A stretch of DNA of 4,571 nt from a virus (lineage: Duplodnaviria; Heunggongvirae; Uroviricota; Caudoviricetes), in IMG/VR virus record IMGVR_UViG_2541047905_000006; one strand, 5' to 3'. Below, piece by piece: positions 1 to 4,571 of the stretch. Numbering within the stretch: the stretch's first letter is position 1; every line of letters begins with the position of its first letter. The notes under the pieces were generated by a model, which saw only the letters and a program-made list of their open reading frames with translations, did not search any database and was not told where the DNA came from. The position numbers and the translations under genes are program-made.

Positions 1-1
1 A

Positions 2-169
2 ATACACCGTAAGAGCTGGAAAAACCGTGCAGAAGTGGAACTGGCCACACTCACGTGGGTGGACTGGTATAACAATCGACGATTGCTGGAAAGGCTGGGC
101 CATACTCCTCCGGCAGAAGCAGAAAAAGCTTATTATGCTTCCATCGGAAACGATGATCTGGCAGCCTGA
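2..169 (+). CDS. IS3-family transposase (OrfB-type) C-terminal fragment, 5'-partial
   Basis: Frame 2 translates to IHRKSWKNRAEVELATLTWVDWYNNRRLLERLGHTPPAEAEKAYYASIGNDDLAA*, with stop TGA at 167-169. The WYNNRRL...LG...P motif is typical of integrase-like DDE transposase C-termini. The supplied 27..404 ORF is a different, chimeric frame. Confidence 0.85.
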   Translation: MHRKSWKNRAEVELATLTWVDWYNNRRLLERLGHTPPAEAEKAYYASIGNDDLAA

Positions 170-186
170 GTTCACAGATAAAACAC

Positions 187-211
187 TCTCCAGGAAACCC
201 GGGGCGGTTCA
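187..211 (+). repeat. terminal inverted repeat (right end) of the IS element
   Basis: tctccaggaaacccggggcggttca is the reverse complement of TGAACCGCCCCGGGTTTCCTGGAGA; identity with the second copy stops exactly at 211. Confidence 0.75.
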
Positions 212-404
212 GGCATCCCGTACTCCGGCAATGCCGGAAGGTGGCGATAATGCTGATGATGTAATGAATGTTACGGACCCGATTTCAGGGATTACGTTCC
301 AGATTGCACTGTATCGTCAGTATCGCCAGGTGCGCTATGAAGTTGGACTGGCATGGGGTGTTTCATCAGTGAAGCCGGCACATGGTTGTCTGATTCTTGG
401 TTAA
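212..404 (+). pseudogene. 3' fragment (64 codons) of a phage structural gene, probably the major capsid protein, truncated by the IS insertion
   Basis: Only one frame is open from the IS junction to TAA 402-404 (...MPEGGDNADDVMNVTDPISGITFQIALYRQYRQVRYEVGLAWGVSSVKPAHGCLILG*). It sits immediately upstream of the head-tail joining genes and is followed by a terminator hairpin. Capsid identity is inferred from position only. Confidence 0.5.
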
Positions 405-414
405 ACATTCAAAC

Positions 415-434
415 GGGGCTTCGGCCCCATTTTT
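415..434 (+). terminator. putative rho-independent terminator (GGGGC-TTCG-GCCCC hairpin plus T5)
   Basis: ggggcttcggcccc forms a 5-bp GC stem with a TTCG tetraloop, followed by atttttaa, 11 nt after the stop of the upstream remnant. Confidence 0.55.
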
Positions 435-446
435 AATGGGGGGCAT

Positions 447-623
447 ATGGCCGGATTAACTAAAGAGCAAAGAGCACAGCGTGAAGCCGCACAAAAAACG
501 CAAATTGAGTTAGTGGTTATGGTGACCGATTATCAGATGTTTCCCGGCGCACCAACTATCGCTAATGTTCATCCTGATGAAGTTGACAACTGGAAGGCTA
601 TGGGCTGGAAAACTCAGGAGTAA
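447..623 (+). CDS. hypothetical small phage protein (58 aa)
   Basis: ATG 447 to TAA 621-623 gives MAGLTKEQRAQREAAQKTQIELVVMVTDYQMFPGAPTIANVHPDEVDNWKAMGWKTQE. A G-rich run (438-443) lies just upstream, and the 3' end contains the AGGAG ribosome-binding site of the next gene. Absent from the ORF track. Confidence 0.4.
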   Translation: MAGLTKEQRAQREAAQKTQIELVVMVTDYQMFPGAPTIANVHPDEVDNWKAMGWKTQE

Positions 624-626
624 CAC

Positions 627-1022
627 ATGATCACTTACGTGACCTGTGATGACGTTGATAATGCGTTTGGGAACGCCTGGACGAGTGAGAACGCTAAAAA
701 TAAAGCTGTTTTAATGGCTAATGCCTGGCTTAATGGCTTCAACCTGAAAATTAACCCATCCCGTATTCCGGAAGAGGTAAAACTTGCGGGAGCATATGCA
801 GCCAGAATTGCCTCATTCGGTAAGTTGTTTCAGCAGAAAAATGATTCTGGCGTTGTTATCAGTAAAGCCGTGTCGGCTGACGGGGTCAGTGTATCGAAAT
901 CATTTTCTGAGTTGCCAGCAAACAGCACTGCATTGCTTGAACCCGATTTACAGCTTGCGATAGCACTGCTGAAACAGTACGGACTTAGTCGCTCACAAGT
1001 CAGGGTTGTGAGGGGGGGATAA
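627..1022 (+). CDS. putative head-tail connector / DNA-packaging protein (lambda FI position)
   Basis: 131-aa ORF with AGGAG 615-619 placed 7 nt upstream of ATG. First of a tightly coupled run of ~130-aa genes between the capsid remnant and the tail genes. Function inferred from synteny. Confidence 0.55.
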   Translation: MITYVTCDDVDNAFGNAWTSENAKNKAVLMANAWLNGFNLKINPSRIPEEVKLAGAYAARIASFGKLFQQKNDSGVVISKAVSADGVSVSKSFSELPANSTALLEPDLQLAIALLKQYGLSRSQVRVVRGG

Positions 1023-1405
1023 TGGGGCTTCGTGAAGAGATTCAGTCAGAGGTTGCCGCTGCTTTTGATGAGGATTTAGCGGACGCCGTGAGTGATTTTT
1101 CTGGTTCTTACGTTACGCACCGGCACTGGGATCCTGTGACGGAAACTGGCGGCGAATCCACCGCAATCTATACCGGGCGAGGCGTGTTGACACGTTATAA
1201 GCTGGGCAGAATTGATGGGATTAATATTTTGCATGGTGACCTTAAATTAACCGCTCTGGTATGCGAGGTTACGGATAAACCAGCTGTCGACCATATTATT
1301 GAGATTTATGATCCTGTATCAAGGCAGTTACAACGATACGAGGTAATTACAGCAAGTGTAGATCCTTCCGCATCAGTTTACTCTATCCAGTTAAGGAGAG
1401 CGTAA
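1022..1405 (+). CDS. putative head-tail joining (head closure) protein, gpFII-like position
   Basis: 127-aa ORF whose ATG overlaps the upstream stop (TAATG at 1020-1024), preceded by a purine-rich GGGGGGG. Acidic N-terminus (AAFDEDLADAV) is reminiscent of FII-type proteins. Synteny-based. Confidence 0.55.
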   Translation: MGLREEIQSEVAAAFDEDLADAVSDFSGSYVTHRHWDPVTETGGESTAIYTGRGVLTRYKLGRIDGINILHGDLKLTALVCEVTDKPAVDHIIEIYDPVSRQLQRYEVITASVDPSASVYSIQLRRA

Positions 1406-3164: not shown

Positions 3165-3176
3165 TTTTCCGTTATT

Positions 3177-3203
3177 CCCCCTGTGGTACTGCACTACAGG
3201 GGG
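3177..3203 (+). promoter_or_regulatory. imperfect inverted repeat (RNA hairpin) between the major tail gene and the chaperone gene
   Basis: ccccctgt (3177-3184) pairs with acaggggg (3196-3203) around an 11-nt loop, with no T-run after it. The 3' arm AGGGGG is the candidate ribosome-binding site for ATG 3213. Confidence 0.3.
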
Positions 3204-3212
3204 ACGCATTGA

Positions 3213-3674
3213 ATGAGGTTATGGATGTTTATTCTTAATCAGAAAATTATCATCGGTGGAGAACGCTGGTTTACGCCAATGAAGGACTTAAAACCTATAG
3301 ACGGGTTAAAACTGTTGGTGGCAAGCAGCGATAACGATCAGTATCGCTCCCGTAATGCATTAATCCGTCGTCACATTGAGAAAATGGATGCCAGTTTGCA
3401 CGTCGGAACGAAGGAGTTTGATATTTCAAAGGTTTCCGAGGTAGATTCTGTTGATGATTTACTCATTGATAATGCTGCTCGTTATCTGCTGAAAGACTGG
3501 AAAGGGGTTGGTGAACTGGTTAATGGTGCTGAGGTTGCACTGGAATATACGCCAGAACGAGGGATCGCGCTGCTTAAGCAGAATCCAGAGTTGTACTGGC
3601 AGATCCTTGCAGAAGCAGCCAGCATCGCCCAGGGTAAAGAGCAGCAGAAGCAGGATACGATAAAAAAGCCATAG
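3213..3674 (+). CDS. tail assembly chaperone (lambda gpG-like)
   Basis: 153-aa ORF ending TAG 3672-3674, directly after the slippery heptamer. An alternative in-frame start at ATG 3225 (GAGG 3215-3218, 6-nt spacing) gives MFILNQKIIIGGERWF, a typical chaperone-like N-terminus. Confidence 0.65.
   Translation: MRLWMFILNQKIIIGGERWFTPMKDLKPIDGLKLLVASSDNDQYRSRNALIRRHIEKMDASLHVGTKEFDISKVSEVDSVDDLLIDNAARYLLKDWKGVGELVNGAEVALEYTPERGIALLKQNPELYWQILAEAASIAQGKEQQKQDTIKKP
3662..3668 (+). promoter_or_regulatory. -1 programmed ribosomal frameshift slippery heptamer A_AAA_AAG
   Basis: The 0-frame codons ATA AAA AAG CCA TAG place A_AAA_AAG three codons before the chaperone stop. The -1 frame is then open for 104 codons to TAG 3980-3982 and coincides with the 3749..3982 ORF. 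Confidence 0.6.
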
Positions 3675-3982
3675 CCGCCCAGCGGTGGTTATCGGAGTTC
3701 GGGGGAGAAAGGGGGGAAAAGGCAAGATGGAAGCGAGAAAAACTCAGGTTGCCACCGATACCGGAACCAGAAATAGACCCGGTGCTTAAGGAATTGTTGT
3801 ACGCCTATTCGGTAATATCCCGTGCCCGACGTTATGCTGGAATGACCGGGGTGCCTTTGCCTTTATCTCTGACAGAGATAAATGAATATTTAGCCACTCA
3901 TCCGGTATTGATTGAGCGCGATGAGTTTGAAGCAGTGATCTTTGCACTGGATGACCAGTATTTTCAGGAGCAGTGTGTGTAG
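3668..3982 (+). CDS. tail assembly chaperone frameshift extension (gpT-like), expressed only as a G-T fusion
   Basis: -1 frame from the slippery site reads KKAIAAQRWLSEFGGERGEKARWKREKLRLPPIPEPEIDPVLKELLYAYS...QEQCV*. No ATG or convincing ribosome-binding site of its own; the ORF track begins it at a TTG. Confidence 0.55.
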   Translation, partial: AIAAQRWLSEFGGERGEKARWKREKLRLPPIPEPEIDPVLKELLYAYSVISRARRYAGMTGVPLPLSLTEINEYLATHPVLIERDEFEAVIFALDDQYFQEQCV

Positions 3983-4105
3983 TTGTTAATTACGTACACT
4001 CTGTTACAGAGATGTGATGGTGTCTTTAATTAAATCGATGATGCTCCTGGAGAAAAGCATTGCGTGGCCTCGTAATCGCTATATCTACTATTATGTCGCC
4101 TGAAA

Positions 4106-4125
4106 CCCACTTCGGTGGGCTTTTT
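4106..4125 (+). terminator. putative rho-independent terminator (CCCAC-TTCG-GTGGG hairpin plus T5)
   Basis: cccacttcggtggg forms a 5-bp stem with a TTCG tetraloop, followed by cttttt, about 20 nt upstream of the tape-measure start. Confidence 0.5.
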
Positions 4126-4145
4126 GTTGTCTGGAGTTTTAATAA

Positions 4146-4451
4146 ATGGCAGAGCAAACCTCGCGTCTCGCAATAATTATTGATAGCACTGGAGCAAAAA
4201 ATAATGCTGACAATCTGACCTCCTCATTAGTCAAAATGACGCAGGCCGGGGAAACTGCTGCAAATAGCGCAGGGAAAGTGACTAAGGCAACAGAAGATGA
4301 GAAGAACGCGCTCGCAAAATTAAAAGCAGCTATTGATCCAGTTGGTGCCGCAATTGATACTGTCGGTCGACGCTATTCTGAATTAAAGAAATTTTTCGAT
4401 AAAGGGCTTATTGATAAAGAAGAATATGAATTTCTTGTCCGTAAACTTTGA
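4146..4451 (+). pseudogene. N-terminal fragment (101 codons) of the tail tape measure protein, truncated by IS insertion
   Basis: GGAG 4133-4136 upstream of ATG 4146. Protein [20 protein letters not shown]... resembles in pattern the lambda gpH N-terminus MAEPVGDLVVDLSLDAARF (from memory) and sits where the tape-measure gene is expected. The stop TGA 4449-4451 is the first three bases of the IS terminus. Confidence 0.55.
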
Positions 4452-4473
4452 ACCGCCCCGGGTTTCCTGGAGA
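4449..4473 (-). repeat. terminal inverted repeat (right end) of the second IS copy
   Basis: TGAACCGCCCCGGGTTTCCTGGAGA read on the + strand at 4449-4473, a TG-initiated terminus. Confidence 0.75.
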
Positions 4474-4490
4474 GTATTTTATCTGTGAAC

Positions 4491-4571
4491 TCAGGCTGCC
4501 AGATCATCGTTTCCGATGGAAGCATAATAAGCTTTTTCTGCTTCTGCCGGAGGAGTATGGCCCAGCCTTTC
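4491..4571 (-). CDS. IS3-family transposase C-terminal fragment (second copy), 5'-partial
   Basis: Minus-strand translation from 4571 gives ERLGHTPPAEAEKAYYASIGNDDLAA*, with the stop at 4491-4493 (tca on +), identical to the left copy. Confidence 0.85.
   Translation of the reverse strand, partial: ERLGHTPPAEAEKAYYASIGNDDLAA

Follow-up and report, generated by a model that had tools for sequence, protein, structure and literature searches.

Two insertion-sequence events, a bridged deletion and a later simple insertion, very probably shaped a Rac prophage remnant in Escherichia coli UMEA 3174-1

The 4,571-nt stretch of DNA analyzed here (the window) was very probably shaped by two separate insertion sequence (IS) events, an older deletion and a later simple insertion, and is, with comparable confidence, a leftover piece of the Rac prophage of the urinary Escherichia coli isolate UMEA 3174-1. 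The window corresponds at 100% identity to positions 5856–10426 of locus L003, in scaffold KE701845.1 of this extraintestinal isolate, and is flanked in the scaffold by stretches of 791 and 1335 N. Its two edges mark places where the assembly broke within the IS repeat, not natural boundaries, and the interiors of both IS copies are Ns in the source assembly. The assignment to Rac is based on gene order and homology. L003 reads zntB-dbpA-ttcA-intR′, and so does L019, a 5.09-Mb contig without gaps from a near-identical strain. The ttcA-intR region is 98.1% identical to that of a full Rac-type prophage with xisR, ralR, recET, kilR, sieB, and trkG.

A repeat search of the window showed that positions 89–211 and 4449–4571 are reverse complements over 123 nt (99% complementary, with 4237 nt between them), the sole mismatch being position 184 (C) versus position 4476. 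An inverted match of 123 nt in 4.6 kb cannot have arisen by chance, and it stops at 123 nt because the contig stops there. A previous sequence-only reading had described these arms as two inverted copies of one IS3-family element that bracket a block of lambdoid head–tail and tail genes, each with the transposase C terminus and a terminal repeat, the right ends facing inward. IS alignment and matches to NF033516 and to phrog profiles confirmed this description, and the right-end repeats of both copies (TGAACCGCCCCGGGTTTCC...) indeed point inward. The features of the window are as follows.

1–211, + strand: 3′ end of IS copy 1 (positions 1100–1310 of the 1310-bp IS), 100% identical to full IS copies in L001 and L019
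2–166, stop 167–169, + strand: last 55 codons of orfB of IS copy 1 (2–169 matches NF033516, IS3 family transposase, at profile positions 329–369)
187–211, + strand: right terminal inverted repeat of IS copy 1, ending at 211 (...CCCGGGGCGGTTCA)
212–404 (codons 213–401, stop 402–404), + strand: Rac major capsid gene 3′ fragment, last 63 codons (phrog_283 major head protein, profile 321–383 of 385, E = 2e-19)
415–428, + strand: terminator-like hairpin and T-run after the capsid gene (consensus scan only)
447–623, + strand: 58-aa conserved phage protein, function unassigned (phrog_1514, E = 4e-43; "hypothetical protein" in all related prophages)
627–1022, + strand: head–tail adaptor (Ad1; phrog_493, E = 1e-47)
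1022–1405, + strand: head closure protein (Hc1; phrog_161, E = 2e-28)
1406–1786, + strand: tail completion/Neck1 protein (phrog_169, E = 3e-55)
1783–2175, + strand: tail terminator (PF13554, E = 4e-8; phrog_179, E = 1e-40)
2202–3164, + strand: tail tube protein (PF18906 Phage_tube_2, E = 2e-32, full profile; phrog_290)
3213–3674, + strand: tail assembly chaperone (G-like), start at 3213 or 3225 (phrog_313, E = 3e-46; PF27119 Phage_YdaY on the called gene)
3662–3982, + strand: slippery heptamer A_AAA_AAG in the chaperone frame (3662–3668), then a −1 extension (T-like; phrog_1189, E = 5e-37)
4106–4119, + strand: terminator-like hairpin and T-run upstream of the tape-measure gene (consensus scan only)
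4146–4448, + strand: tape-measure gene, first 101 codons of 1077 when intact (phrog_3827 and phrog_24 tape measure)
4449–4571, − strand: 3′ end of IS copy 2, inverted (reverse complement of IS positions 1188–1310), with the right terminal repeat (4449–4473) and the last 27 orfB codons

By its sequence, the element can be classified as a 1310-bp IS of the IS3 family, IS629/IS1203 type, with IS629, IS1203, and IS3411 not separable here. The name is based on the PGAP label of close copies ("IS3-like element IS1203 family transposase") and on the end sequence, which we take to be that of IS629. The ends of the element begin TGAACCGCCCCGGG..., and its imperfect TG...CA terminal repeats, IRL (TGAACCGCCCCGGGAATCCTGGAGA) and IRR (TGAACCGCCCCGGGTTTCCTGGAGA), are identical at 23 of their first 25 nt. 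In two further copies of this type of IS, the 3-bp target duplications are ACC and GAT. In L016 and L019, the same left junction as in the window runs on into complete orfB/orfAB with an rve domain (for L016 orfB, rve E = 8e-28 and NF033516 E = 1e-93). The L019 copy, which matches the left copy in the window at 100% identity wherever the latter is sequenced, encodes orfA in frame 0 and orfB in frame −1; its orfAB gene call is 404 aa long and contains HTH_Tnp_1 and rve. Extension past the window edges, which the earlier reading had proposed, revealed IS left ends beyond both gaps of L003, with intR′/ttcA to the left and the 3′ part of the tape-measure gene to the right; the left end of copy 2, together with the 5′ part of orfA, lies past the 1335-N gap at L003 11762–11980. 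Both copies are probably full length, judging from these left ends, from the gap sizes (791 and 1335 N versus 883 and 968 nt expected for full-length copies), and, for the left copy only, from L019 and L016.

The 4.2 kb between the copies comprise the 3′ end of the Rac capsid gene, four connector genes, the tail tube gene, the G/GT chaperone, and tape-measure codons 1 to 101. The G-like chaperone gene is present here at full length, whereas K-12 Rac has a fragment of it, ydaY. As in the lambda G/GT chaperone frameshift, an in-frame slippery heptamer near the end of the chaperone ORF is followed by an open −1 frame, here up to 3982 and directly upstream of the tape-measure gene; the heptamer and the extension, predicted from sequence, would give a G–T fusion, with expression assumed by analogy with lambda. 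The tape-measure frame is closed by a TGA formed by the IS end (4449–4451). With the capsid and tape-measure genes both broken, the virion module is disrupted at both ends and the prophage is defective, as claimed earlier, a remnant that is unable to form virions and whose surviving tail genes are nonfunctional. The UMEA 3174-1 gene calls G929_01514 (an IS/capsid chimera) and G929_01522 (a truncated tape-measure protein) are junction artefacts and not genes. Against Rfam (E ≤ 1), the window had two matches only, both at chance level.

The right copy is a simple insertion after tape-measure codon 101 with a 3-bp CTT/CTT target duplication. One copy of the duplication is the inner flank at 4446–4448, previously read as TTT, the T at 4449 being the first base of the IS. 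The second CTT (L003 11981–11983) stands after the IS left end, where IRL is followed by CTTAATGAAACC (L003 11980–11983). The uninterrupted tape-measure allele reads AAACTTAATGAAACC in L001, L002, L014, L015, and K-12, and the empty site has a single CTT (AAACTT, then AATGAAACC) in five other loci. Past the right copy, the 3′ part of the tape-measure gene (970 aa) was located on the same strand in L003. Alleles 100% identical to that of the window lack the tape-measure insertion. Among the loci found by exact look-up of the 101-aa sequence, only L003, L006, and L008 have an IS at this site; L008 belongs to a Rac allele that is 1.7% diverged, and its IS629-type right end, with a 1-nt variant, occupies the identical base with the identical orientation. 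From the same look-up, the right junction seemed to be present in many samples whose head genes are intact, but these proved to be mostly contig ends and were rejected because L004, L005, L007, and L009–L012 end at CTT, CTTA, or CTTAA of the uninterrupted gene. The tape-measure cluster contains many partial N termini of 59 to 107 aa.

The left copy is a single IS that bridges a deletion of about 29 kb, running from the interior of intR to about codon 317 of the capsid gene. Because of this deletion, its flanks are GTT (outer; L003 4846–4848) and GGC (inner; 212–214, as read before) rather than a duplication, so that the flank comparison suggested by the sequence-only reading gives matched ends for the right copy and unmatched ends for the left one. 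On the outer side, intR is cut to its C-terminal 254 to 255 codons and adjoins ttcA; intact intR reads ...GGTT and then CTTCC at the breakpoint. The inner flank is capsid position 948, the breakpoint lying 947 nt into the 1140-nt gene and mapping to L001 6001 (L001 capsid CDS, 5054–6193); the 5′ capsid part, which the earlier reading proposed to locate, was lost in the deletion. In the full Rac-type prophage of NZ_AP022207.1, the two breakpoints are 30,085 nt apart, with one extra 1.3-kb IS in that interval.

The same left junction was found in other assemblies. L019 reads ttcA-intR′-GTT, a 1310-bp IS, and GGC-capsid′, has an intact 1077-aa tape-measure gene, and is 100% identical to L003 1–5064 and 99.98% identical to window positions 1–4448. 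The first 4 kb downstream of the right insertion site are also identical between L003 and L019. A recombination boundary at the right IS, considered in view of 98.9% identity between these loci downstream, was rejected, the mismatches starting more than 4 kb further downstream. L014 and L015 share the left junction; their block is 100% identical and their tape-measure gene uninterrupted. The left junction also occurs in L016. L006, an independent read-set assembly seen in four samples, carries both junctions. When 100-nt queries spanning each junction were run against 5,426 complete RefSeq E. coli genomes, no match covered 80% or more of the query, and the exact junction patterns were absent from GTDB representative genomes and JGI metagenomes; given this absence, support for the junctions comes from few draft or other assemblies.

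In the history that we propose, an older event would have removed about 29 kb of Rac and left one full IS between the breakpoints, with loss of the intR N terminus, xis, recET, the immunity, replication, and lysis genes, trkG, terminase, portal, and five-sixths of the capsid gene. A younger event would have been the copy-out-paste-in insertion of a second IS, in opposite orientation, after tape-measure codon 101. The deletion is placed first and the right insertion later because L019 has the left junction with one IS and an intact tape-measure gene, and L014 and L015 likewise show the left junction without the right insertion. The 4.2-kb block would then be bracketed by coincidence of position, neither inverted nor mobilized. 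Two independent insertions were among the options offered earlier; two independent events are correct, though the left one bridges a deletion. The earlier reading did not see this deletion, the different ages of the events, or that the window stops at assembly gaps on both sides.

Two inverted repeats of about 1.3 kb, with about 99% identity and 4.2 kb apart, are a substrate for homologous recombination, and the contigs alone fit either orientation, both IS interiors being gaps. It is nevertheless very unlikely that the block is the product of such recombination or is actively flipping. In the scaffold, the block is collinear with the 3′ part of the tape-measure gene, on the same strand, and with the downstream tail genes; CTT/CTT is matched across the right copy, so the flanks are not swapped; and in L019, where the left junction is oriented with respect to intR and the tail genes just as here, the single IS makes inversion impossible. 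The marks of IS-mediated inversion, a reversed segment and exchanged duplications, are thus absent with the source-strain orientation taken from the scaffold; for UMEA 3174-1 itself, the noninverted arrangement derives from the mate-pair links of the scaffolder and from target-duplication logic, as right ends are not assignable to left ends from short-read contigs alone. A passenger segment flanked by two copies of one IS also resembles a composite transposon that moved as a unit, a reading to which we give next to no credence, since the outer flanks (GTT versus CTT) mean that no duplication surrounds the unit, the tape-measure gene picks up again exactly at the cut with native Rac gene order on both sides, an allele lacking the right IS is identical over the block and the next 4 kb, and the left copy occurs without the right copy in four other assemblies. 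The IS-block-IS unit was not found elsewhere in complete E. coli genomes, phages, GTDB representatives, or JGI metagenomes. Both options came from the sequence-only reading, and neither is supported. Finally, both ends of the window fall within a multicopy repeat where the assembly has gaps, and matches to the window, mostly IS copies, number a median of 5 and a maximum of 59 per E. coli genome, which could suggest that generic IS ends were misattached to a phage contig or mis-scaffolded. Such an artefact is extremely improbable: the junctions are internal to the contig, at distances of 211 and 123 nt from the ends, the pair recurs in L006, the left one recurs in L014, L015, L016, and the gap-free L019, and single-base differences tell the two copies apart.

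For the two-event history, the older deletion may be the result either of recombination joining two IS copies in direct orientation or of transposase-dependent IS-adjacent deletion, and the sequence does not separate these routes. The latter, involving "sloppy" strand transfer, perhaps with stimulation by the IS-excision enhancer protein (IEE) as for IS629, rather than RecA recombination between two pre-existing direct copies, is a serious possibility that falls somewhat short of an even chance. One intact IS with unmatched flanks fits this route, as does the literature: IS629 deletions beyond precise excision have been ascribed in a review to strand transfer in which one IS end is joined to a site that is not the opposite end (10.1101/2023.06.07.543989), and another source links IS629 to genomic deletions (PMC9943667). 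However, GTT-IS-GGC is also expected from recombination between an IS in intR (with a GTT duplication) and an IS in the capsid gene (with a GGC duplication), and two direct copies of this IS type do occur in one Rac-type prophage (L001). No intermediate was found for either route. It is unlikely, taking the two proposals jointly, that the site after Rac tape-measure codon 101 is a preferred target of IS629-type elements or that the inverted pair flips the connector/tube cassette in part of the population.

Taken as two separate IS events, the window represents ordinary IS-driven prophage decay of an already known kind, and its importance beyond annotation is small. It provides a fully ordered case in which an IS3-family element drove prophage decay stepwise, first through an IS-bridged 29-kb deletion and then through a simple insertion, and it cautions that an apparently designed "bracket" can result when a window ends in collapsed repeats. 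A combined literature search on Rac, tape measure, and insertion sequence yielded nothing. The case resembles IS629/IS1203 in EHEC O157 prophages in the 1310-bp length, the TGAACCGCCCCGGG... ends, the orfA/orfB 0/−1 frames, the rve transposase, the 3-bp duplications, and the combination of gene inactivation with deletion inside a lambdoid prophage; it differs in that the host is the extraintestinal isolate UMEA 3174-1, the prophage is Rac, and these two junctions occur in 0 of 5,426 complete E. coli genomes. As in composite transposons and IS-bounded invertible segments, inverted copies of one IS flank a few kilobases of passenger DNA, but there is no duplication around the unit, the context and orientation are native, and the copies were acquired at different times. 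A further comparison is with the cryptic prophage K-12 Rac, which shares the integration site (ttcA, intR), is likewise a defective remnant, and is 98.6% identical to window positions 3323–4448 over ydaY-ynaA. The K-12 Rac deletions, unlike that in UMEA 3174-1, are not IS629-bridged. K-12 Rac retains the early region, from intR to trkG, but no longer has the head genes or most of the tail genes; in UMEA 3174-1, the early, lysis, and packaging regions of Rac are gone and the genes from connector to tail fibre survive, a decay complementary to that in K-12.

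A repeat search of the window returned one long inverted repeat, 89–211 against 4449–4571 (123 nt, 99% complementary, spacing 4237 nt), whose sole mismatch between arms lies at 184/4476; the remaining repeats are short two-copy matches at chance level. This confirms the inverted pair described in the sequence-only reading, and the transposase C-terminus and inward right ends noted there were borne out as well. Other E. coli genomes contain 1310-bp IS copies whose positions 1100–1310 match window 1–211 at 100% identity; window 4449–4571 is the reverse complement of IS positions 1188–1310, and the right-end repeats of both copies face inward. 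Positions 2–169 encode the C-terminal 55 residues of an IS3-family transposase (NF033516, profile 329–369). Traced by a look-up of the 101-aa protein from its interrupted tape-measure ORF, the window matches positions 5856–10426 of the source locus L003 at 100% identity (scaffold KE701845.1, assembly GCA_000460555.1; strain E. coli UMEA 3174-1 according to protein records EQX54339 and EQX54347), where it is flanked exactly by two N runs, 791 and 1335 long. Its edges are thus short-read assembly breaks within a multicopy repeat, and the repeat stops at 123 nt because the contig stops there.

The genes between the copies were assigned by PHROGs and Pfam as follows.

Genes between the two IS copies (window coordinates)
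213–404: major capsid protein, last 63 codons
447–623: conserved 58-aa protein, function unknown
627–1022: head-tail adaptor
1022–1405: head closure protein
1406–1786: tail completion protein
1783–2175: tail terminator
2202–3164: tail tube
3213–3674: tail assembly chaperone
4146–4448: tape-measure protein, first 101 codons

Prophages in approximately 700 E. coli genomes share this block at 99.6–100% identity, as do nine induced “vB_EcoS” phage records. At its 3′ end the ORF of the YdaY-type tail chaperone contains an in-frame slippery heptamer, A_AAA_AAG, and the −1 frame after it is open to 3982 and encodes a phrog_1189 protein; together (window 3662–3982) these form a predicted programmed frameshift of the lambda G/GT type, which existing annotations divide into two genes, “YdaY” and “hypothetical”. 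Two GC hairpins with T-runs resemble terminators: one lies at 415–428, 3′ of the capsid gene, and the other, unusually, at 4106–4119, where it separates the chaperone T-extension from the tape-measure gene. The 163-nt spacer at 3983–4145 has neither an annotated feature nor an Rfam match. Read in an alternative frame, the IS 3′ end continues stop-free into the capsid frame, yielding chimeric ORFs of 83–125 aa (window 27–404, 135–404); these are junction artefacts that gene callers have reported as hypothetical proteins (EQX54339).

A full copy of the prophage is found in NZ_AP022207.1, located at ttcA and carrying intR, xisR, ralR, recT, recE, kilR, sieB, ydaF, ydaT, ydaV, and trkG, a gene set and site that identify it as a complete Rac-type lambdoid prophage. 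The prophage under study is without excisionase, immunity, replication, lysis, terminase, and portal genes, its integrase and capsid genes are not full-length, and its tape-measure gene is split. It is certainly defective, as had been proposed from the sequence.

Uninterrupted tape-measure alleles (comparison loci L001, L002, L014, and L015, and K-12) read ...GTCCGTAAACTTAATGAAACC..., with a single CTT. In the source, the tape-measure side reads ...AAACTT followed by TGAACCGCC, the IS right end; the inner flank at 4446–4448 is CTT, not TTT as first read, and the IS end supplies the stop codon of the truncated 101-aa ORF (4146–4451). Past the gap, the scaffold continues with the reverse-complemented 5′ part of orfA and the IS left end, then ...GGCGGTTCA|CTTAATGAAACC, so that CTT is matched across the IS. 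The missing 3′ part of the gene, a 970-aa remainder, is found there on the same strand, followed by homologues of lambda minor tail protein (M-like), L, K, I, and J. Judged from these flanks, the right copy is a single reverse-orientation IS within a 3-bp CTT target duplication, that is, a simple insertion. In L001, two more elements of this IS type are flanked by 3-bp duplications (ACC and GAT), indicating that 3 bp is the normal product of this element.

The left copy differs in that its flanks, GTT and GGC, are unmatched. The inner flank, GGC..., corresponds to capsid position 948/1140, and the outer flank, ...GCGCACGGTT, lies inside intR; intact intR goes on with CTTCC after this breakpoint, and what remains is its C-terminal 254–255 codons, adjoining ttcA. 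The full Rac-type reference places these breakpoints 30,085 nt from each other, with one unrelated 1.3-kb IS in that interval, which means that about 29 kb of prophage has been lost. Since the left join of the source assembly crosses a gap, independent support was taken from L019 (GCA_045573325.1), a gap-free 5.09-Mb contig with the order ttcA – intR′ – GTT | 1310-bp IS with intact orfAB | GGC – capsid′. L019 is 100% identical to L003 1–5064, a stretch that takes in 216 nt from the left end of the IS, and 99.98% identical to window 1–4448, and has an 83-aa IS/capsid chimeric ORF (window 153–404). This confirms the scaffold join and shows that the left element is full-length.

The left junction also occurs in L016, and it accompanies a 99.98–100% identical block and an intact 1077-aa tape-measure gene in L019, L014, and L015. 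As these relatives share the junction, the deletion is the older, common state, and the tape-measure insertion came later, in the lineage of UMEA 3174-1. The source and L019 are identical over the first 4 kb 3′ of the insertion site and differ only beyond it. The two IS copies differ at 3 of 342 comparable positions (IS positions 81, 124, and 1283), which suggests that the right copy is probably not a fresh duplicate of its neighbor, the alternative being collapsed-repeat consensus errors. L003 15980–20306 departs sharply from L019, with as many as 40 differences per 500 nt. This divergence sets in about 4 kb past the insertion site, within the K/I/J tail-tip region, and resembles a patch of mosaic recombination independent of the IS.

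What is observed, then, is an ordinary insertion of an IS3-family element on the right and, on the left, an IS between non-contiguous DNA flanks. Of the two independent insertions considered in the sequence-only reading, the right one stands, and the left is an IS bridging a deletion. Inversion of the block by recombination between the copies, also considered there, is contradicted by the collinear tape-measure halves, by the CTT matched across the right copy, and by L019, in which the left junction is oriented identically and just one IS is present; the substrate for flipping is present, and a flipped isomer may occur in a minority of cells. A composite transposon fares no better, given that the outer flanks do not match (GTT, CTT), that the block lies in its native context, and that the copies differ in age. 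Nor is the bracket an assembly artefact, the junctions being reproduced in independent assemblies; both occur together in L006, an independent read-set contig seen in four samples.

The deletion itself could have arisen by homologous recombination between two directly oriented IS copies located in intR and in the capsid gene, respectively, and the L001 prophage shows that such double IS hits do occur. Alternatively, it could reflect a transposase-dependent, IS629-like IS-adjacent deletion. Such IS629 deletions have been described (10.1101/2023.06.07.543989; PMC9943667). GTT–IS–GGC is expected from both routes, which the sequence does not tell apart.

Most loci retrieved by a 101-aa look-up were rejected as insertion evidence, their contigs simply ending at codon 101–102 of an uninterrupted gene. 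Seven contigs from unrelated samples (L004, L005, L007, L009–L012) stop 0–2 nt from tape-measure codon 101 (window 4448–4450 equivalent), and many members of the 90% cluster are partial N-termini of 59–107 aa. This pile-up likely reflects exact-match look-up selection and assembly breaks where co-resident lambdoid tape-measure genes become similar. At exactly the tape-measure position and orientation of the window, contig L008 (1814–1865, equal to window 4423–4474; sample SRR15853321) has a right end of the IS629 type that shows a 1-nt variant (GGTTTTCC). The Rac allele concerned is 1.7% diverged, and no IS is present at this site in L014, L015, and L019, the alleles with 100% identity. L008 could represent a repeated hit on one site or a recombined patch. 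L001 has two identical direct-orientation copies of a 98%-related IS3-family element (2059–3368 and 11948–13257), and L002 has such an element at ~11640–12950 in its Rac-type structural module; these sites lie in a minor head gene and at two further sites in the tape-measure gene. The late region of the Rac-type prophage is struck repeatedly by IS.

The junctions were found in none of 5,426 complete E. coli genomes, and in no GTDB representative genome or JGI metagenome either. These specific junctions are rare; the phenomenon is already known, being standard IS629/IS1203-type behavior in a lambdoid prophage. The cryptic Rac of K-12 keeps window 3323–4448 as ydaY–ynaA (98.6% identity), and the decay of Rac seen here is complementary to the K-12 pattern.
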